In this document: piece after piece, positions 15,248 to 55,100 of the stretch
Position numbering within the stretch: position 1 is the stretch's first letter
Layout: each line of letters begins with the position of its first letter
Source: Dictyostelium discoideum
Lineage: Eukaryota
NCBI GenBank assembly: GCA_000004695.1
Contig: CM000151.3
Location: 6,848,001-6,912,000, forward strand
Direction of reading: 5' to 3'
DNA length: 64,000 nucleotides
Notes under the pieces: generated by a model
What the model was told of the DNA's origin: nothing
The model's input: the letters and a program-made list of their open reading frames with translations, nothing else
The model's database searches: none
Translations under genes and position numbers: made by a program

Positions 15248-15320
15248 CGCCCAAAGGGGGGCTCGAACCCCCGACCACAAGGTTAAAAGCCTTGCGCTCT
15301 ACCGACTGAGCTATCTGGGC
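15248..15320 (-). tRNA. tRNA-Lys (anticodon UUU), 73 nt.
   Basis: Minus strand reads GCCCAGATAGCTCAGTCGGTAGAGCGCAAGGCTTTTAACCTTGTGGTCGGGGGTTCGAGCCCCCCTTTGGGCG. It folds as a cloverleaf: a 7-bp acceptor stem with one G-U pair, a D-arm (GCTC/GAGC), an anticodon loop CTTTTAA, and a T-arm (GGGGG TTCGAGC CCCCC). The A box (TAGCTCAGTCGG) and B box (GGTTCGAGCCC) are present. Confidence 0.9.
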
Positions 15321-15368
15321 TTTTTTGAAAATTTCATCTTTAGTACAAAATAAGGTAGATTTAATAAG

Positions 15369-16213
15369 TGGGAAGAGGAACTCAAAAACAACAACAACAA
15401 CAAAACAACAACAACAAAACAAAATCAACTACAACTACACTGGCAATGCGAGCAAGCATGGACCCAATTAAAAACTCCACAAAATAAACAAACACACTAC
15501 GAACACCTCCCAAAATTAAAAAAAATATACGAGGATATGATGACAACCCAATCTCCAGAACACAACAAATTCATACCAACTCCTGGCCAAAAAGAAATAA
15601 TGACCAAAATTAATAGCAAACACCTTCTATTTAAAGAAATCAAAAAAATAATAAACATGAAAGGTAGAGATCTATTATGGAGATACACACTGAAAGCACT
15701 ACCAAAAATATACAACATGCCATGCCAACAGTGTGGGGAAGATGAGACTTCAGAACATATATTCTTCAACTGCAAAGCCCACATCAAAAACACACAAGAA
15801 ATCTTCAACTACACCCTAACTAAGTGTGGACACACCACTCACACCTGGAATGTGAAGATTTTAAACCATCTACAAATCGCACTAGTAGCCAATTTAATAG
15901 CTATTATATTCGAAAAAATCTGGCACAAAAGAAATAAACTCATTCACGATGAAAAAGAAATAATAATTCACAGACAACAAGTCATACGTGAACTAATTAA
16001 AACACAAAGAGCTGCATGGGACAGGACACAAGCGGTTATAAACAAAACATTAAGAATCAAATCAAAGCAACGGCCAGAAGAACAAAATAAATTAGACTCA
16101 CTAATCTCGCTAAAGCTATTACAATTTAGCAGACAATGGAACTCACCTCTTCACGCAATAGAACTTCCTAAACATCTCAAAAAATACAATAATTCACTCA
16201 GTACCTTCTCTAA

Positions 16214-16268
<55 letters not shown>
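15369..16268 (+). mobile_element. 5'-truncated TRE5-type (tRNA-gene-targeted) non-LTR retrotransposon fragment. It carries the C-terminal part of ORF2 and a poly(A) tail, and starts about 48 bp upstream of the tRNA-Lys 5' end.
   Basis: ORF 15537..16217 encodes a Cys/His-rich tail (CQQCGEDETSEHIFFNCKAHIKNTQ ... CGHTTHTWNVKILNHL) typical of LINE ORF2 C-termini. It is followed directly by A50 at 16218..16268. The position relative to the tRNA 5' end fits the known TRE5 targeting distance. The exact 5' boundary is inferred. Confidence 0.55.
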
Positions 16269-16272
<4 letters not shown>

Positions 16273-16594
16273 GGAACCCAAGTTAATCAGAAAATTTCCA
16301 GATTTTTAACTTTTTAAAGAAAAATACAAAAAATAGAAAGAAAATAAAATGAAAATCACAAACAACACCACAAATATTAAGCAACACAAATGCCTACAAA
16401 AAATAAGCGAAATTGTGGATAAAACTCAATTAAAAAAAAAACAATTCAAATACGTCATAAACATCAATCACGAACCAGACGATAAAATAAAAAAAGATTT
16501 AGAAAAAAGTTTGGACAAAAAAGATGTTTTAATCAAAAGTAATAATAGAAGTTGCTTAATATTAAAATTAAATCTACCTTATTTTGTATAGAAA

Positions 16595-43920: not shown

Positions 43921-45904
43921 ATTCGTTAAACCCATCATAATAAACTATTTTTTAGTAATATAGCATTAAGTGCGTTTTATTTATTTTAGTATTTTTTATT
44001 GAGTTAGAGGAATCAAAAATTATTATTATATTACTATTATTATTTTAAGTCAATAGTTTTTTAATTTAATTTTATTATAAATCTACAAATCTATATTTCA
44101 TCAATTAATTGGACATTATTCAATACAAATAAAAAAAATAAATGACAACATATATGAACTAAAAATAGAATTTTTTTTTTATATAAACACACCGATCCAA
44201 AAAAAGTGTGGTTAAAATTTAATAACAATATCTAGATTTAAATTTTTTTTTTTTTTTTTTTTTTTATATGTATACTAAAATAAATAAAAAACAAATATAT
44301 ATAAAAGAAATAATTATTTTTATAAATGACGATCATTTATTTTTTATTTGTTATTTATGTCAGTAAAAAATGTTTTGAGAGAAATTTTTTTTTTTTTTTT
44401 TTTATACATACTAACCAAACTTTAAATCAGATTCTACATAAACTAATGTTATAAAAAAAAAAAAAAAAAACAAAAATGAAAAGATATTGGATTTAAATAA
44501 CTGCGAAATAGATTTAAATCAATGAAGTTTTAATAATATCCAAGACCAAACATATGCATAAAAAAAAAATTAAAAAAAAAAAAAAAAAAAAAAAAATTAT
44601 TAAAAATTTATTATTATTTTATTCCAGCTTGTATTTAATTTCCAAGGCAAGAGAATAAAATTTCTATTAATATTCATTAATTTTTTTTTATTTTTTTAAA
44701 GATTTATTAAGAAATACTAAATACTTTATAATGGTTTAATTATTATTTTATTTTTTTTTTTTTTTTTGATTTCATTTTTGATCATGTGATCCAATGAATC
44801 AATATAAAAAAAAATAAAAAAAAAAAAAAATAAAATATTTTAATAAAAATAAAATATTTTGGTTAGTGGTGGGTGTTGATATCAACATTTTACTTTTTAA
44901 AAATCAAAAACCTATTTTTAATGTCAATTGCAACATTAACTAATTACAAATTCTTTCATTAATTCCGAATATTATTAAATATTTTCTTTGAAAACAAAAA
45001 AAAAAAAAGAATAAAAAAACAAAGAGTATTTTATAAAATTGTTTTACATATTTTATATTTTAGTTTTTTTTTTTTTATTTAATTTTTTTTTTTTTTTATT
45101 TTATTTTTATATAGTTTTATTTAATAATTTACGAAAACATATTCTCTTCATTTTAAAATATAAATAATGATATATAGTAAGTTGTAGAAAAAAAAAAAAA
45201 AAAAAAATGAAATTAATAAAAAATATTTTGTTATTTATTTATTAACAATTATTTAATTTAAATTATTTCAGAATCAATGGTTTTTAAATATTATAAATGT
45301 GAATCATGTAATTCAAATCATATAGAATCAGGTTCATCTCATTCAATAAATTATTGTTTGGATTTAAATTCAAGTAAAATTTATAGAAATCTAACATGTA
45401 CATCATTTTTTACTCGCCCAATTTTCCAATCTTTTTAAATATTAGGTCAACACTGAATTTCTTGAAAAAAAAAAAACAAATAAAATAAAAAATCCATCAA
45501 ATGAAAAAACAATTGAACATATATTCCGAAATCAAAATAAGATTAAAAAATTTCAAATTGTTAGATTTTATTTATATTTTTTAAAAAATATTAAAACAAA
45601 CAATTAATAAATTATTTTCATTTTATTTTGCTATTAAAAAAATCATTTATTTCTAAAATTGTTTTTTGAGAAATTAGAATTAAAAAAAAAAAAAGAAAAA
45701 CCCCACAAACAAAAATAATAAAATTAATTCTGGTTAGTCGACACATAATGAAAATAAAACTAATTCTGGTGAGTCAACATTTTGAAAATAAAATTAATTT
45801 ATTTTTAATAAAAAAAAGATTTTTCAATTCTTTTTTTTCTTCATTATTCAAGACGAAAATTGACCATCTTCATCAAAAAAAAAAAATTTAATTTAATTTT
45901 TTTT

Positions 45905-46440
45905 TTGGTAGTGAATGGGGCATAAGATCAGTGAATTTATTTGATTTTCATTTAAAATATCATCCTGAAAGAATACAAACCTATATTAGAGCAGCATTTG
46001 GCTCAATCTTCCTATATTATCATCCAAAATTTATTATTAAGGTTTTAAAATTTTTAGAAGAGTCTATCAATCATAATAAACCATTTACTTTAACTATAAG
46101 TGAAAGAAATTATTTCATTATTAAATATTTAGATAGTTATAAATATAATGAAGAATTGTTTTAAAATGATATTGAATAATCCGATATCACCAACTTCAAT
46201 ATTTCGAAATATCCAAATTTTTAAGAAATTTTCAAGTGTAGATACAAGAATGGGTGTATATAGTTATTTAACTTATAAAAAATTACTCCCTTTTGGATTT
46301 AATAGTATTCGAACATCATTTTATTACCGTAATGAAAGTTCATACGAACCTAAATTAACTTTCTAAAAACAATAATAAAGTATAAAAATAAAACAATAAA
46401 TTATATACACAAATATTAAAAAATTCTTTTGGTAATAAAA
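45905..46440 (+). pseudogene. Truncated, frame-disrupted copy of the 5' part of the 1615-aa gene at 49934..54781 (equivalent to about residues 90-245), fused directly to a copy of that gene's 3' flank.
   Basis: It splits into two frame-shifted ORFs: 45931..46164 (LFDFHLKYHPE.IQT...HPK.IIKVL.F..ESINHNKP.TLT..ERNYFI) and 46148..46366 (NPISPTSIF.N.....LPFGFN.I.TSF). These are about 80% identical at nucleotide level to 50270..50720. The end at 46350..46440 (CTAAATTAACTTTCTAAAAA.AATAA..TATAAAAATAAAACAATA) matches 54850..54905 downstream of the intact gene. Confidence 0.6.
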
Positions 46441-46914
46441 AGGTTATTTAATAATTTTTTTTATTTTTTTTTATTTATTATTTTTATCATTTTATTATTT
46501 AATTAAATGGATGTGAATTGAATGTTTTTTTTTTTTTTTTATTGGTGCATGAGAGAAAAAAAAAAAAAAAAATTAAAATAAAAAAATAAAAATAAAAACA
46601 TGGGTGTTTTGAGATATTATTAAATTTGATTTTTTTTTTTTTTTTTTTTTAATTTTTTTATTTTTTTTATTTTTAATAAATAAACTTTGTTTTTAAATGG
46701 TTGAATAATAGAAATAGAAATTGATTTAAAAAAACTAATTAAAATCATATCTTTTTTGTATTTATTTATATTTTTTTTTTTTTTTTTTAATTTCCAAGGA
46801 TTTAATTATTAATTTATTTTAATTTCCATTTAGTATGGATAAACAGAAAACTCAAAAATATACAAAATGATATAGAATTTTAAAAAAATAAAAATAATCA
46901 TTCTTTTTTATAAT

Positions 46915-48380: not shown

Positions 48381-49085
48381 ATGGAGACTAAATTAAATTT
48401 TGATGAAGCTATAAATAAAATTGACAAGATATTGAAACTTGGTCAACTTTTTAATGTAGTCGGAGGAGATATCTTTTTCTGTATTTGTAGTACTAGTAAT
48501 TCCGATGTAAATAATATTGATAAACAAGAAAATAATGATAACGGTAATAGTGATAATAAATTTGATGAGCAAGTATGCAAACGTTTTGAAAATAATTTTA
48601 ATACCAGATTTACAAATATGGTAATCAATATAAAAACTAAACCAGTTAGAGTTGAATTTATTGGTAATTGTGATTCAAAATCAACCGAATTAGAAATAAT
48701 TAAATATTATCGTTCAAATCCAAATTTTATTAATTTAGTAGATTATGAAAATAATAGTTCAACCTCTTCAAATGAAAATAATAGATATATTCATATTCGT
48801 CTTTATTCATTACCAAAAGAATGGTCAATGACATATGTTTGTGAAAAATCTTTTGAACATTCCCATACCCACACTCATGAACAAGGTCATGGTCATCATC
48901 ACAATCACCATCATAATCAGAATGATCATCACCATCACCACCATAATGATCTTGACCCTTCCCATCACCATCACCACCACCATGAGGATGATCATTCTCA
49001 TGAACATGGACATTCCCACTCTCATACTCACACCCATACTCACCCAGGCTCAGAAGAAACCTATCAATGTATGAATTTCCATTGA
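48381..49085 (+). CDS. Histidine-rich protein, 234 aa, single exon, a candidate metal-binding protein.
   Basis: A roughly 165-aa N-terminal domain (METKLNFDEAINKIDKILKLGQLFNVVGGDIFFCICSTS...YVCEKSFEHSH) is followed by a 65-aa tail that is over 50% His (HTHTHEQGHGHHHNHHHNQNDHHHHHHNDLDPSHHHHHHHEDDHSHEHGHSHSHTHTHTH). Confidence 0.7.
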   Translation: METKLNFDEAINKIDKILKLGQLFNVVGGDIFFCICSTSNSDVNNIDKQENNDNGNSDNKFDEQVCKRFENNFNTRFTNMVINIKTKPVRVEFIGNCDSKSTELEIIKYYRSNPNFINLVDYENNSSTSSNENNRYIHIRLYSLPKEWSMTYVCEKSFEHSHTHTHEQGHGHHHNHHHNQNDHHHHHHNDLDPSHHHHHHHEDDHSHEHGHSHSHTHTHTHPGSEETYQCMNFH

Positions 49086-49283: not shown

Positions 49284-49369
49284 CTAAAAATAGAAAAAAA
49301 AAAAAAAATCTGTATAATAATGTTCATGATATCAAATATTTTTCATTGAAATTTAATTCTTATTAATTT

Positions 49370-49640
49370 GAAGATTGAAAGAAAAAAAGACTATTTCTTG
49401 GATGTCCAAAACAAAAATTCATTTTATTTTTTTTATTTTTTTATTTTAATTTTTTTAATTTTTCTTTTTTCATTTTTTTTTTTTTTTAAAACAAAACTTA
49501 AATAAAAATAATAAATAATCAAAGAATTGGATGAGTACTTCAAACCATTATCACTTCAAATTGTTATTTGTAAGAAAATAATAATAAATAATCAAAGAAT
49601 TGGATGGGTACTTCAAACCATTATCACATTTAAATCTTTG
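49370..49640 (+). repeat. Duplicated copy of the promoter and 5'-leader of the 1615-aa gene (compare 49790..49933). In the copy the ATG region is replaced by two tandem copies of a body-derived segment (GGATGRGTACTTCAAACCATTATCAC, compare 54634..54660 and 52898..52920).
   Basis: Direct repeats seen by eye. GATTTCTTGGAT(G/A)TCCAAAACAAAAATT...AAATAAAAATAATAAATAAT occurs at both 49385..49530 and 49800..49935. Confidence 0.55.
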
Positions 49641-49746
49641 TTATCTGTCCCAAAATTACCATAATAATTTCAGCCTAAAAACGGGTTGTTTATGCATGCT
49701 TAAATTGATATGGTAATTTTGGGACAGATAACAAAGATTTAAATGT
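49626..49746. repeat. Perfect 38-bp inverted repeat (ACATTTAAATCTTTGTTATCTGTCCCAAAATTACCATA / TATGGTAATTTTGGGACAGATAACAAAGATTTAAATGT) with a 45-bp GC-containing spacer. It could be a foldback or MITE-like element, or a hairpin RNA.
   Basis: Arms at 49626..49663 and 49709..49746 are exact reverse complements. The spacer is ATAATTTCAGCCTAAAAACGGGTTGTTTATGCATGCTTAAATTGA. Confidence 0.8.
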
Positions 49747-49933
49747 AGAGCTTTTATTTTTTTCTATTTCTAAATAAGTTGGTATGAATTTTGAAAATCA
49801 AAAGAAAAAAACACGATTTCTTGGATATCCAAAACAAAAATTTTTTTTTTTTTAATTTTTTTATTTTTTCATTTTTTTTTTATTTTTTTTTTTCTTTTAA
49901 ACAAAATATAAATAAAAATAATAAATAATTATA

Positions 49934-52900
49934 ATGAATAATGAATATAATGAATTATTATTTTGGAAAGTTTTTAAAAATAATTATTTATTAAATTGTA
50001 TATTAAAAAATAAATGTTGTTATAAAAGTAAAAAATTTAAAACTATTACATCAATAGATTCAATGTTAAAACATAAACAATATCAACTGTTGATATGTAA
50101 ATTAAAAGCAGATGAAAATTTGTATTTTAAAGGAAAATATGGAAATGATGAGATCATTAATAGAATAGAAGATATAGAAGTATTCAAAGAGATATATTCA
50201 TTATTACTCTTTAAAGGTTATCAAGATACTAGGGATCATCGTATTTTATTCGATAGTATTTGGGGTATAAAATCAGTAGATTTATTTGATTTTCATTTAA
50301 AATATCATCCAGAAGAATTACAAACCCATATTACAACATCCATATACTCAATCTTGGTATATAATCATCCAAAATTAATAATAAAGGTTTTAAATTTTTT
50401 TAAAGAGTCCATCAATCATAATAAACCAATAACTTTAACCAAAAATGAAAGAAATTATTTCATTATGGAATATTTATATTATTGTAGATATGGAAGAAAT
50501 ATTGAAGAATTGAAAGAAAAGATGAAAATGATATGGAATATTCCAATATCGTCAACCTCAATATTTCATAATTCAGAAAAAAGAGTTCCAAGTGCGAATG
50601 TAGGTTGTTTTCTAAAATATCAAAAATTATTACCTTTTGGATTTAATAATATTCAAACATCATTTGATTGCTCTAAAGAAAATCCAAGGAGTTATTCTTC
50701 TATTGGTGATAGGCGGGGAGATGAAAATAATCAACGTTCTGTTTATAGCATAAATCATTTAAATATGTTTTCAAGTTTTTGTTATGACTTTGATGATAGT
50801 ATTTGCGAGTACATAAAAGATGTTAAAGGAAATTTTGAGTGTATCTCTTCATCTATCAAATCAGTTTTATTATATTTTAAATTGTATTATTGCAACTATG
50901 ATTATAAAAGTAAATCAAAAAGTATACCAACATCGATTCAAACTCAAATTGATATAATAATTGAAAATAGTAAACATAGACGTTGTACTGTATATCAATC
51001 AATTAAACAATTATTTCAACTATTAGCCATTGAATCAAAATCAATTGTTTTATATGCATTTTATTTAAAAGAATATAATGAACCAATTGATACCATTGAA
51101 CTTAGTGAAGAAATTCAATTATTGTTAATATATTACATGATAAAAACCTATAACACCAATATATTAAAGTTTCTATTGAAAAAACATTTAAAAATCAAAT
51201 TAACAAAATTAGATTTGGACTATATTGGTGAATCATATCTCAAATTTTTATTTAAAAGTAAACAAATTAATAAAAACAATATTATTATGTTCTACAAAAA
51301 CTACACATCACAAAAATCAATCATTATAGAAGATTTAGATGAAAAACCACTAGATGATGCAATATCAACAAAGGAACTTATTGATTTGGACAATAAACGA
51401 TTACATTCAATTCTAGGTAATGAATCATCATCGAAATGGAAAGAAATTACATCAAATATAATTGATAATGATATGATTGTTACAATTAAAGATAAAGAAA
51501 CAATCGATTGGTTATCAGATATAGAAACAGGTGGTGGTTGTAGTATTTTAAAAATAAGAGATGCTTTAAATTCAAAATTAAAACAAATGAAACTTGATTT
51601 TAGTACATTGGAATTATTAGAATATGCAAGAATCAAATTTAAACAAGTAATTCCAATTTTAGATTTAAATAAAGAGTTGTGTAATATCCACATTTTACGT
51701 ACTCATGATGATATTGAATCATTAATCAATCGTTTAAACCAATCAAACTTTAATAACAATGAAAATTTATTTAAATATTATATGATTCAAATAATTCAAT
51801 TTGGTTCAAGAAATTCAATGAAATACCTAAGATTAATTTGTGATTCTATTGACGAGTTATTAATGGACTATGAAGGTTGGGTAATTTTAGATGACACTTT
51901 AAGAAGGTTTTATATTAACTCATACCTAATAGAAGGAGAGATATGGGACAATTCAGTAGGTTATCATGAAAATAAAAAGTTCAAAGAATACAAAATACCA
52001 ACTCAACAAACATGTCAAATAATCAATCTCACCAAAATTAAAGTCAATTTCAATCACTTTCCAAATGTAACTTCTTATTTATTACAAACATTTATCGAAC
52101 TTTTAAATTTTGAAGGTGTTCAGTTTATTCTTGATAATTTAAATGGTAAAAATTTAAAATTAAATGAAAAAGCATTTAAAGATCGTTTTCATGATAGAAT
52201 CTATACATGCAAATATTTATATAAAGATTTGATTGAAATGATTCAATTTTTAATTAATAAATTCAAAGATGGTCAATTATCATTATCAAATTTATCATTG
52301 ATATTAAATTTCTTATTTTCAATGTTAATTAGAGTCAATGATTTAACAAATGATCAAATCAAAACAGCTTATCAATCAATATCAAACTATATTGAAATAG
52401 ATAGTTCAGAACTCAATTCATACTATTATTTAAAAACATTATCACCCATTATTTCATCATGTATTATCATTTTTAGAGATAATGGTGGTGGTGATGTTAG
52501 ACCATTACTTGAATATCATATAGATACATCAGTATATACATTCGAACATATATTTACAAATAGAAATAATAACGATCTGAACCAATTTATCGATTCAACA
52601 ATCATGGATATTGTAAAAGATCGTTTTTATTCTAATTTAAACAAAATGTTAGATAACAATAATCCAAGAATTAATTTATTTTTACATTATTTCGAAATTC
52701 AATTAAAATACAAAAATGAAAATGATTTCAAAGGACCATTTTTAAATTATAAACTATTGAAATTAATAATTAAAACATTTGATTTAGAATCATTTATTAA
52801 ATTAGATAGTTTATTAGAGAACCATAATGGTAATTGTGAGCAAGAGGGTTCAAATAACAGGATTTTAAGCGAATTAGAGAAATTTTATTTTAATTGGAAA

Positions 52901-54781
52901 AAACCATTATCATCTAATATGGTTGAATGGTTTGGTATAATTGTATACAAAGATTATTCAGATTATCAAGATATTATAAATTACTTATTTAATAAATATA
53001 AACACCAATTGGAACCATATATAATTTACTATAAATTAAAAATAAATAATAAATCAATAACTAATAATCAGTTACATTCAATTTTATGTAATAAATCATC
53101 ATCGAAATGGAAAGAAATTACATCGAATCTAATTGGTAAGGCCGCTGCTACAATTAAAGATAAAGAAACAATCGATTGGTTATCAGATATAGAAACAGGT
53201 GGTTGTAGTAATTTAAAAATAAGAGATGCTTTACATTCAAGATTAAATCATATGGAACTTGATTTTAGTTCATTGGAATTATTAGAGTATGCAAGAATCA
53301 AATTTAAACAAATCATTTCAATTTTCGATTTATGTGATGAGTTTTTCGAAATTCATATTTTACATACTCATGATGAAATTGAATCATTAATCAATCGTTT
53401 AAACCAATCAAACTTTAATGAAAATGAAGATTTATTTAAAAATTATATGATTCAAATAATTGAATTTGGTTCAAGACTTTCAGCTAAACACATAAGATCA
53501 ATCTTTAAATCATTGGAATATGGCGTTGACAAGTCATCATTGGGAAATGATAATTATAAAGAGTGGAAGTATTTAATAAACAAAGTTTTCAAATACGAGT
53601 ATAGAAGGTTTTTTGATAACCCCTCATACATCCATGAAGAATATTTTTTGGGCCAAATACTACGTGATCATAAAAACGAAGAATACAAAGAATACAATAT
53701 ACCAACTCGACAAGAATCTCAAATAATCAATCTTTCTAAAATTAAAGTCAATTTCAATCACTTTGCAAATGTAACTTCTTATTTATTTCAAGGATCCATC
53801 GAACTTTTAAATTTTGAAGGTGTTCAATTTATTCTTGATAATTTAAATGGTAAAGATTTAAAATTAAATGAAAAAGCATTTAAAGATCATTTTCATGATA
53901 GAATCTATTCATGCGAATATGTTTCTAAAGATTTATATGATACCATTCAATTTTTAATTGAAAAATTCGAAGATGGTCAATTATCACTATCAAATCTATC
54001 ATTGATATTAAATTACTTATTTTCCAAGTTAATTAGAGTCAATGATTTAACAATTGATCAAATCAACATATCTCATCAATTAATATCAAACTATATTGAA
54101 ATAGATAGTTCAAAATACAATTCATACTATTATTTAAAAATATTATCACCAATTATTGAATCATGTATTACCGTTATCGAAGGTCCTACAAGTGATGATG
54201 AAGATGGTAATGGAAAACCAAGACCATTCTGTCATTATGATATAGATACATCAGTATATACATTCGAACACATATTTACAAATAGAAATAATAACGATCA
54301 GAACCAATTTATCGATTCAACAATCATGGATATTGTAAAAGATAATTTTACAATTGAAATATTTTCCAAAATGTTAGATAATAATAATCCAAGAATTAAT
54401 TTATTTTTACATTATTTCGAAATGGAATTAAAAAAAAGAAAAACAAGTAATGATTTCGAAAATGTATTTTTAGAATTTGAACAATTGAAATTAATAATTA
54501 AAACATTTGATTTAGAATCATTTATTAAATTTGAATATTTATTACAACAATATCAATTCTACTTATCACCTGATATCGATGAATGGTCAGATATAAACAA
54601 AGAGTATGCAAATGATCAAGAGGATATAAATGATGGGTACGTCAAACCATTATCATCTAATTTGGTTGAATGGTTTGGTAAAATTTCATTCATATATTAT
54701 CCAGATTATCCAGATATTCTTAATTACTTATTTGATAAATATAAAAACCAATTCGAACCATATACTAATTATATAAATTAA
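49934..54781 (+). CDS. Large hypothetical protein, 1615 aa, single exon. It has a roughly 480-aa N-terminal region followed by two tandem copies, each about 560 aa, of a repeat unit.
   Basis: An uninterrupted ORF. Residues about 488-1050 and 1050-1615 are about 75% identical. Examples: HSILGNESSSKWKEITSNII...KDKETIDWLSDIETGGGCSILKIRDALNSKL vs HSILCNKSSSKWKEITSNLI...KDKETIDWLSDIETGGCSNLKIRDALHSRL. Both units end KPLSSN.VEWFG...DY.DI.NYLF.KYK.Q.EPY. I recognise no known domain. Confidence 0.8.
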   Translation: MNNEYNELLFWKVFKNNYLLNCILKNKCCYKSKKFKTITSIDSMLKHKQYQLLICKLKADENLYFKGKYGNDEIINRIEDIEVFKEIYSLLLFKGYQDTRDHRILFDSIWGIKSVDLFDFHLKYHPEELQTHITTSIYSILVYNHPKLIIKVLNFFKESINHNKPITLTKNERNYFIMEYLYYCRYGRNIEELKEKMKMIWNIPISSTSIFHNSEKRVPSANVGCFLKYQKLLPFGFNNIQTSFDCSKENPRSYSSIGDRRGDENNQRSVYSINHLNMFSSFCYDFDDSICEYIKDVKGNFECISSSIKSVLLYFKLYYCNYDYKSKSKSIPTSIQTQIDIIIENSKHRRCTVYQSIKQLFQLLAIESKSIVLYAFYLKEYNEPIDTIELSEEIQLLLIYYMIKTYNTNILKFLLKKHLKIKLTKLDLDYIGESYLKFLFKSKQINKNNIIMFYKNYTSQKSIIIEDLDEKPLDDAISTKELIDLDNKRLHSILGNESSSKWKEITSNIIDNDMIVTIKDKETIDWLSDIETGGGCSILKIRDALNSKLKQMKLDFSTLELLEYARIKFKQVIPILDLNKELCNIHILRTHDDIESLINRLNQSNFNNNENLFKYYMIQIIQFGSRNSMKYLRLICDSIDELLMDYEGWVILDDTLRRFYINSYLIEGEIWDNSVGYHENKKFKEYKIPTQQTCQIINLTKIKVNFNHFPNVTSYLLQTFIELLNFEGVQFILDNLNGKNLKLNEKAFKDRFHDRIYTCKYLYKDLIEMIQFLINKFKDGQLSLSNLSLILNFLFSMLIRVNDLTNDQIKTAYQSISNYIEIDSSELNSYYYLKTLSPIISSCIIIFRDNGGGDVRPLLEYHIDTSVYTFEHIFTNRNNNDLNQFIDSTIMDIVKDRFYSNLNKMLDNNNPRINLFLHYFEIQLKYKNENDFKGPFLNYKLLKLIIKTFDLESFIKLDSLLENHNGNCEQEGSNNRILSELEKFYFNWKKPLSSNMVEWFGIIVYKDYSDYQDIINYLFNKYKHQLEPYIIYYKLKINNKSITNNQLHSILCNKSSSKWKEITSNLIGKAAATIKDKETIDWLSDIETGGCSNLKIRDALHSRLNHMELDFSSLELLEYARIKFKQIISIFDLCDEFFEIHILHTHDEIESLINRLNQSNFNENEDLFKNYMIQIIEFGSRLSAKHIRSIFKSLEYGVDKSSLGNDNYKEWKYLINKVFKYEYRRFFDNPSYIHEEYFLGQILRDHKNEEYKEYNIPTRQESQIINLSKIKVNFNHFANVTSYLFQGSIELLNFEGVQFILDNLNGKDLKLNEKAFKDHFHDRIYSCEYVSKDLYDTIQFLIEKFEDGQLSLSNLSLILNYLFSKLIRVNDLTIDQINISHQLISNYIEIDSSKYNSYYYLKILSPIIESCITVIEGPTSDDEDGNGKPRPFCHYDIDTSVYTFEHIFTNRNNNDQNQFIDSTIMDIVKDNFTIEIFSKMLDNNNPRINLFLHYFEMELKKRKTSNDFENVFLEFEQLKLIIKTFDLESFIKFEYLLQQYQFYLSPDIDEWSDINKEYANDQEDINDGYVKPLSSNLVEWFGKISFIYYPDYPDILNYLFDKYKNQFEPYTNYIN

Positions 54782-54980
54782 AACTTTCAATTCAAAAATT
54801 CAATTACTGCTATTAGTTAAAATCTTTTCACATAAAATCAATATTGTTCTAAATTAACTTTCTAAAAAAATAAAATTATAAAAATAAAACAATATATTTA
54901 CACAAAAAAAAAAACCAAAAAAAAAAAAAAAAAATTATTACTCTTTGTTCCAATTACTTGTGGTAGTTGTTGTTTGATTT

Positions 54981-55014
<34 letters not shown>

Positions 55015-55065
55015 TGTTTTTTGGAACCAATAGACAGAGATAAAAGATCTCCTCAAAAAAATGGG

Positions 55066-55100
<35 letters not shown>

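Follow-up and report, generated by a model that had tools for sequence, protein, structure and literature searches.

DDB_G0276559, a multi-module gene in a fast-evolving Dictyostelium family: an old in-frame duplication in an open reading frame that selection appears to maintain

Introduction

How does a large gene come to carry two adjacent, in-frame copies of the same 1.7-kb segment, and what holds such a gene open? The question is raised by a 64,000-nucleotide stretch of Dictyostelium discoideum DNA (GenBank assembly GCA_000004695.1, contig CM000151.3, positions 6,848,001 to 6,912,000 of the forward strand), which we call the window and number from its first letter. An open reading frame (ORF) at 49934-54781 on the plus strand comprises 1615 codons plus a stop in a single exon, with no internal stop. 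Its product matches DDB_G0276559, a "hypothetical protein" of D. discoideum AX4 chromosome 2, at 100% identity and 100% coverage. By this match, DDB_G0276559 is a eukaryotic nuclear gene that was already annotated and has hitherto gone unstudied. An earlier note, made from the letters alone, had described the product as an orphan built by a recent tandem duplication. Here we examine the layout of the gene, the family to which it belongs, the forces acting on its reading frame, the age of its duplication, and the kind of protein that it probably encodes.

Results

Self-comparison of the ORF gave one strong off-diagonal match, in which nucleotides (nt) 51392-53041 align with 53063-54783 at 80.4% identity over 1732 columns, or 82.6% over the ungapped columns. 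At the protein level, the two copies, which we call modules R1 (amino acids [aa] 487-1035; 51392-53038) and R2 (aa 1044-1615 plus the stop; 53063-54781), are 64% identical with 75% positives (E = 0). The internal tandem repeat claimed in the earlier note is therefore confirmed by both self-alignments, and the repeat is significant. The figure of about 75% given there for protein identity holds for similarity; identity is only 64%. A 47-nt stretch that had been quoted as identical between the copies does occur exactly, and twice, at 51488 and 53156 (chance expectation, 0), and R1 and R2 have exact runs of 41-49 nt in common. The proposed repeat-end motif, KPLSSN.VEWFG...NYLF.KYK, was likewise found twice, at aa 990-1023 and aa 1571-1604.

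The complete ORF reads, in order, N-region, R1, an 8-aa junction, and R2, all on the plus strand. The N-region (aa 1-486; 49934-51391) occurs once per family member and is unrelated to the repeated module; the idea that it is an older copy of that module was rejected (BLASTP E > 0.9; hhalign probability, 0.6%). R1, delimited by the self-comparison and by its similarity to single-module paralogs, retains a nearly complete version of the native C-terminal tail of those paralogs (…KYKHQLEPYIIYYKL). The junction, KINNKSIT (aa 1036-1043; 53039-53062), lies between R1 and R2, and at this point the former C-terminal tail/stop region continues in frame into the second module.

DDB_G0276559 is not a singleton, as the word "orphan" in the earlier note had implied. 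A word-indexed search returned 29 relatives, every one of them a protein of D. discoideum or D. cf. discoideum; in total the family holds 29 full-length relatives and 14 fragments, with remote homologs in Dictyostelium purpureum. Most members are 1009-1101 aa long and consist of the N-region and one module. Those in AX4 are DDB_G0271218, DDB_G0276409, DDB_G0276403, and DDB_G0276401, with fragments that include DDB_G0276487 and DDB_G0276517. The AX4 paralogs of the DDB_G0276409 type share with DDB_G0276559 the colinear N-region and the 550-aa module (53-77% identity), the conserved N-terminal module, the KPLSSN..EWFG…NYLF.KYK motif, and tandem clustering, but they have one module (1009-1101 aa) where DDB_G0276559 has two. 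Residues 1-486 are colinear end to end with all 28 relatives that were aligned, at 48-76% identity.

The standard layout of the family is an N-region of ~480 aa headed by an LFWKVFKN…KQYQLLICKLK module, as is found in DDB_G0276559, and a C-terminal module of ~550 aa with a KWKEITSNLID…TIKDKETIDWLS block and a KPLSSN.VEWFG…NYLF.KYK tail, both of which are present in R1 and in R2. The module that heads the N-region (aa 1-65; 49934-50128; LFWKVFKNxYLLNxI...KFKTITSxxSMLKHKQYQLLICKLK) is where invariant columns are packed most densely in the family alignment. It is also the only part that aligns clearly with the D. purpureum relatives and with short D. discoideum and D. purpureum gene models. Similarity of the proteins P0045-P0048 to the family is confined to it, and a word-indexed search with its profile returned 4 short proteins.

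An exhaustive hidden Markov model (HMM) search of 1.84 billion (1.84e9) representative proteins used a profile built from 23 single-module members. There were only 21 matches, all of them family members or fragments except for three models of 76-102 aa that share just the first ~65 residues, and no homolog outside Dictyostelium was found among these 1.84e9 proteins. Two of the three short models are D. purpureum "partial" genes that, at the DNA level, turn out to begin much longer ORFs. DICPUDRAFT_23830 (locus L003, 5896-9357; GL870942.1) is annotated as a 76-aa "partial" protein and begins an ORF of 1153 codons; DICPUDRAFT_23422 (locus L004, 5338-8718; GL871065.1), also annotated as 76 aa and "partial," begins one of up to 1126 codons. 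Both ORFs are homologous to the family. Because the D. purpureum annotation is truncated, the family has been hidden from protein-database searches. DICPUDRAFT_83255 and DICPUDRAFT_100004 are further relatives in that species (two proteins of 1134 and 1180 aa).

The N-terminal module matches its D. purpureum counterpart with an hhalign probability of 98.3% (E = 1.5e-14), and in one D. purpureum ORF a further stretch, at profile positions 780-838, is colinear with the family (i-Evalue, 1.7e-6). A permissive alignment extends over 885 columns at 21% identity. Like the family in D. discoideum, the D. purpureum ORFs are ~900-1180 aa long, carry the N-terminal module, and have no Pfam domain. They differ in that they are barely alignable outside the shared blocks, are only 20-37% identical among themselves, and include no multi-module member among those seen. 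On these comparisons, the family is restricted to Dictyostelium and is very divergent between species.

The absence of any nameable domain, as the earlier note had it, was upheld. When the whole protein, the N-region, R1, R2, the relatives, and the N-terminal modules were scanned with Pfam, nothing scored above the cutoff; the only matches were weak ones to RuvB_C, Sec8_N, and Nmad2 (E of at least 2e-4, below the gathering score). Profile searches of PDB sequences with the family and with the N-terminal module found no match, so neither Pfam nor the PDB sequences hold a clear match to a known domain family. The scans included HEAT, ARM, TPR, PPR, ankyrin, and FNIP repeats, for which the whole protein, its parts, and its relatives gave no Pfam match at the cutoff. 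An F-box in the N-terminal module was considered and rejected, as hmmscan of five N-terminal modules at E <= 10 (PF00646 or related) and the PDB profile search were negative. A transposable-element protein was also rejected: there is no reverse transcriptase, integrase, or transposase Pfam domain, although terminal repeats were not searched systematically. What the paralog copies have in common is limited to the coding region and short flanks, and they lie within syntenic host-gene contexts. In composition, the protein is rich in aromatic residues (F+Y+W, 13.9%, which is high against the ~8-9% of typical proteins), as had been claimed, but it is not Cys-rich (Cys, 1.5%). No transmembrane segment is evident, again as claimed, in that the Kyte-Doolittle mean stays below 1.6 in every stretch of 19 residues.

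Next, we compared alleles. The syntenic locus of the wild-strain assembly W2 (L002) contains an uninterrupted ORF of 2013 codons with the order N-region, u1, u2, and u3, and that of W3 (L005) contains an ORF of 1558 codons in which the third module is mostly deleted. Module number is thus 2 in AX4, 3 in W2, and ~2.2 in W3. Relative to AX4, the W2 allele has an extra stretch about one module long (L002 11904-13239), inserted in register. A protein of the cryptic species, P0005, has the N-region and two modules; it was covered at the protein level, and its locus is only presumed to be syntenic.

We then estimated rates of nonsynonymous (dN) and synonymous (dS) substitution by the method of Nei and Gojobori (NG86). 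Between AX4 and its W2 ortholog, dN/dS is 1.42 for the N-region, 1.21 for R1 and u1, and 0.88 for R2 and u3; between R1 and R2 it is 1.16, and family-wide it ranges from 0.46 to 1.4. In the same strains and by the same method, neighboring genes have a dS of 0.01-0.12, a dN of 0.00-0.04, and a dN/dS of 0.0-0.5, so that the nonsynonymous rate of DDB_G0276559 is ~3 to 30 times theirs. The genes ADK and ADH beside a second cluster of family members behave like the other neighboring genes, with low dN/dS. Single-module orthologs in that second cluster have a dN/dS of 0.36-0.57, and therefore the multi-module gene is the fastest-evolving member examined.

Such ratios could mean that DDB_G0276559 is a functionless fusion product drifting toward a pseudogene, with an extra module and a dN/dS near 1 that reflect lost constraint and an open frame that is a transient accident. 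The difference between 0.9-1.4 here and 0.36-0.57 in the single-module orthologs fits that account, and so do the many fragments and remnants in the family, one of them 3.6 kb upstream, and the truncated third module of W3. However, the frame itself behaves otherwise. In a neutral simulation that used the observed substitution spectrum, ~18 stops were expected on one lineage, that of AX4 alone, and none is seen (Poisson P ~1e-8). The indels between the AX4 and W2 orthologs are all multiples of three (19/19), ORFs of 1558-2013 codons remain open in three alleles that were sampled independently, in DNA of ~78% A+T, and R2 keeps most of the family-invariant residues. These observations make decay unlikely and indicate that selection keeps the reading frame open even as the amino acid sequence changes at about the neutral rate or faster. 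The dN/dS data fit strong diversifying selection and very weak constraint alike.

Synonymous divergence is also sizable in the surroundings of the gene. AX4 differs from W2 and W3 by a dS of 0.06-0.12 in ordinary flanking genes over at least 21 kb (window 42600-63500), and at the second cluster, ~60 kb away in W2, ADK and ADH have a W1-W2 dS of 0.07-0.11. Average divergence among D. discoideum strains is ~0.3%, according to a preprint. A hyperdivergent haplotype at the locus was considered and dropped as unsupported, given the similar dS ~60 kb away and given that a dS of ~0.1 is not calibrated. W2 and W3 are most simply seen as lineages that have diverged generally, rather than as carriers of old local haplotypes.

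The surrounding loci show how readily members of the family come and go. Upstream of DDB_G0276559, a paralog remnant at 45899-46352 (+), equivalent to about aa 105-255, is 75% identical in nucleotide sequence to 50244-50681, with 68% and 51% aa identity by tblastn; a 72-aa gene model, P0044, covers part of it. The remnant is 93% identical to L002 3798-4250 and L005 3829-4281, both of which lie within intact ORFs. An upstream pseudogene, as the earlier note had it, is thus real as a remnant in AX4, but the gene is intact in W2 and W3, where it encodes 1100-1107 aa. Just beyond, at 46351-46610 (+), is the 3' flank of the deleted paralog, 89.6% identical to L002 6848-7108, which lies just past the stop of the intact paralog. 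AX4 has therefore lost the 5' end of this gene plus ~2.6 kb of its interior, and 46351-46610 marks the far side of the deletion. W2 has 4 tandem genes at the second cluster, which lies ~60 kb from the first on one W2 contig, and the AX4-like W1 has 2; the locus of P0009 is nonsyntenic. The picture of a fast-evolving, lineage-specific family undergoing unequal crossing-over is borne out by a module number that varies by strain, by paralogs gained and lost, and by the upstream remnant that is intact elsewhere.

Within the gene, R1-R2 identity is a mosaic that runs from 58% to 91% per 150 nt along the module, and over one segment of the comparison u2 replaces u3 as the closest relative of R2. Blocks with few nonsynonymous differences (low pN) coincide with blocks with few synonymous differences (low pS). 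This coincidence speaks for homogenization through gene conversion, or for nucleotide-level constraint, and not for constraint on the protein. The 47-nt block, which encodes KDKETIDWLSDIETGG (51488-51534 and 53156-53202; also present in L001, L002, L005, and L007), is identical at synonymous sites too, in modules whose dS is 0.1-0.3, and this suggests a gene-conversion hotspot or nucleotide-level constraint. An antisense ORF of 130 codons (51301-51693, -) lies over the most conserved block, including the 47-mer. Antisense ORFs of 113 codons are likewise found in two paralogs (L001 6637-6978 and 11386-11727), and a counterpart is absent from the W2 ortholog and from R2. The antisense ORF is probably a by-product of low divergence in the conserved block.

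A species-restricted family in tandem clusters, with presence/absence and copy-number polymorphism, very fast protein evolution, and no conserved enzymatic domain, might also be a selfish or addiction-type family (a toxin-antidote or drive system) that spreads in clusters without serving its host. We consider this highly unlikely. The proposal is speculation by analogy, no partner gene is consistently linked in the loci examined, and no toxin-like or nuclease-like domain was found with Pfam.

One family protein has an unusual order. P0003 (ACTFIZ_010125, D. cf. discoideum, 2046 aa) reads N-region, module, N-region, module, with the second N-region lacking the first ~63 residues. Two whole genes of the family are here read as a single protein: either tandem paralogs have truly been fused by read-through, or their models were merged in annotation. 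P0003 illustrates a possible route to multi-module genes.

When did the two modules of DDB_G0276559 come together? The earlier note proposed a recent intragenic tandem duplication, in effect one that arose in the AX4 lineage and whose copies are only now diverging, and adjacent, in-frame copies with exact runs of 41-49 nt in common would suit it. However, R1 is 78-80% identical to the modules of >20 single-module paralogs and only 64-67% identical to R2. In a neighbor-joining tree of 35 modules with 200 bootstrap replicates, R2 grouped with P0002_u3 and P0005_u2, which are terminal modules from another strain and from the cryptic species, at 100% bootstrap. The clade extended with second modules was found at 97.5%. 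R2 belongs to a "downstream module" clade common to other strains, and R1 and R2 were sisters in 0 of 200 trees. The 47-mer shared by R1 and R2 does not speak for recency either: it is exact in 9 further modules of other paralogs, 11 modules in all, and is a family-wide conserved block. The junction, …EPYIIYYKL followed by D/N-x-QLHSIL…, is equivalent across the wild-strain alleles. Because it is the same in these alleles, the in-frame join arose once, before they diverged. Finally, the R1-R2 dS of 0.19 is about twice the dS between AX4 and W2 positional orthologs (0.096 for R1-u1 and 0.130 for R2-u3; range, 0.09-0.13). This evidence leaves a recent origin very improbable and indicates that the duplication is old.

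It is scarcely credible that the AX4 reference merged neighboring paralogs or a collapsed or expanded repeat, as 1.7-kb tandem copies and the poor gene models of the family (the 76-aa D. purpureum "partial" models and a predicted in-frame intron in P0002) might lead one to suspect, since the copies differ at ~1 base in 5 and are thus unlikely to be confused in assembly, the independent W2 and W3 assemblies show the same multi-module single ORF with the same junction, and the ORF is continuous in the raw window sequence.

To what class of protein does the gene belong? AF2 models based on a shallow family alignment are all-alpha, both for the N-region with R1 (pLDDT, 58; pTM, 0.39) and for R2 (pLDDT, 60; pTM, 0.51). 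Local pLDDT reaches 70-89 in aa 100-210, 330-420, and 700-840 and in R2 residues 220-500. Foldseek found nothing in the PDB at E <= 1e-3. Its best matches were large solenoids (FANCI, Ski3, CRM1, and CAND1) with a TM score of ~0.1, that is, generic helical repeats. The nearest fold class for comparison is that of the alpha-solenoid or helical-repeat scaffolds (HEAT, ARM, TOG, TPR, and PPR types; Tel2, CRM1, and CAND1). The models suggest that DDB_G0276559 encodes a large all-alpha protein of the cytosol, one that is probably a helical-repeat scaffold and that belongs to an undescribed family.

Other features lie around the gene, in a window of ~20% G+C whose intergenic stretches have 13-16% G+C. 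The duplication of promoter sequence that had been reported was found, with a distal copy of a 150-bp segment at 49367-49519 (+) that is 82% identical to a proximal copy at 49790-49929 (+), directly before the ATG. It is specific to AX4, as W2 has a single copy, and amounts to an AX4-specific rearrangement of ~420 bp just upstream of the ATG (49367-49929). Within the ~270 bp that separate the copies is a perfect 26-nt inverted repeat (49638-49663 and 49709-49734) that would form a hairpin of ~100 nt, adjoined by a 73-nt tandem repeat (49504-49668). After the first upstream copy, there is a short ATG…GTAAG segment that resembles a mini-exon with a splice donor. An ORF of 234 aa (48381-49085, +), situated between the remnant of the paralog and DDB_G0276559, has a C-terminal half that is very rich in His (HxH and HHHH runs); in W2 it is 97.5% identical at the aa level with a dN/dS of 0.07, and it has no exact gene model on record. 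Just downstream of the gene, AX4 lacks ~1.46 kb (window ~55053-55071; L002 16305-17764; L005 ~15300-16530). In W2 and W3 this stretch carries a 160- to 187-aa gene model that resembles a Cpn60/TCP1 fragment. The only tRNA in the window is a tRNA-Lys(UUU) at 15248-15320 (-).

Discussion

We favor, with some reserve, a combined reading in which DDB_G0276559 is a selected, rapidly diversifying, multi-module helical scaffold with a binding role. The parts of this reading differ in strength: its evolutionary and structural part is very likely, and a binding or conflict role is a tentative proposal that may well prove wrong.

Under the favored reading, the family layout is a 486-aa N-region headed by the ~65-aa module and followed by one C-terminal module of ~550 aa, in a protein predicted to be all-alpha and cytosolic. 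In the lineage of DDB_G0276559, a second module came to follow the coding region in frame, and this predates the divergence of AX4, the wild strains, and the cryptic sister species. Either the module was duplicated in tandem or a deletion fused two neighboring paralogs. Since that time, modules and paralogs have exchanged sequence by in-register unequal crossing-over and by gene conversion, and this has changed the module number, made the copies mosaic, and created and destroyed neighboring paralogs in a process of birth and death. As a helical binding scaffold, the protein might use its conserved N-terminal module to couple to a common partner for docking or signaling and its variable modules to bind rapidly changing targets, with added modules providing more, or more diversified, binding surface. 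Genes engaged in a genetic conflict, whether with a pathogen, with a symbiont, or with another amoeba, are expected to show such a pattern.

Several points weigh against the combined reading. The dN/dS values are ~1 in nearly every segment of the gene, as relaxed constraint predicts, and none is clearly >1. NG86 is crude on AT-rich, recombining paralogs. Given the 0.36-0.57 of the single-module orthologs, it may be that the multi-module gene is just under less constraint than any other member. AF2 confidence is low overall (mean pLDDT, 58-60; pTM, 0.39-0.51), and "solenoid" denotes a fold class only. A literature search by 11 gene and UniProt identifiers found no paper on any family member, more general searches turned up just a preprint on the tgr family, and the role suggested for the N-terminal module is purely conjectural.

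The layout of the family has a formal parallel. Expanded adaptor families, such as the F-box proteins of nematodes and plants, combine a conserved N-terminal module with a variable C terminus. F-box-type expansions are alike in having a short conserved N terminus and a long, fast-evolving, copy-number-variable rest. In the DDB_G0276559 family, however, the N-terminal module is equally conserved at synonymous sites, and it matches neither the F-box nor any other Pfam family even at E <= 10, nor any F-box protein in the PDB.

A second comparison lies within the social amoebae. The kin-recognition proteins of the D. discoideum tgr family span the membrane at the cell surface and have immunoglobulin-like (IPT/TIG) folds. 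DDB_G0276559, in contrast, has no TIG or other Pfam match and no hydrophobic 19-mer at the 1.6 threshold, and it is predicted to be all-alpha. The evolutionary behavior of its family does resemble that of the tgr family, although none of the defining protein features of tgr is shared: the tgr family (tgrB1/tgrC1) shows clustered birth and death, structural variation among strains, pseudogene/intact polymorphism, and elevated dN/dS (bioRxiv 10.1101/2025.10.22.684067).

There is an outside chance that the family is an unrecognized intracellular recognition or conflict system of social amoebae, one that joins a conserved N-terminal signaling or adaptor module to hypervariable, expandable, gene-converted helical modules. 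If so, diversifying selection would act on the modules so that they bind changing targets, such as effectors of pathogens or symbionts or factors of rival genotypes, and a module number of 1, 2, or 3 would widen specificity.

The family is undescribed and belongs to no named family; domain duplication and copy-number change are in themselves of a well-known kind. For annotation, the point to be taken is that the D. purpureum relatives have been cut down to 76-aa "partial" models. The evolutionary rate of the family is high enough to merit specialist attention. DDB_G0276559 illustrates lineage-restricted family growth in which whole modules of 550 residues are added and removed in frame and the frame stays open despite an approximately neutral rate of change. 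If diversifying selection proves to be the cause, the social amoeba would have a second hypervariable clustered family beside tgr, this one intracellular, and a candidate for a part in immunity or social conflict.

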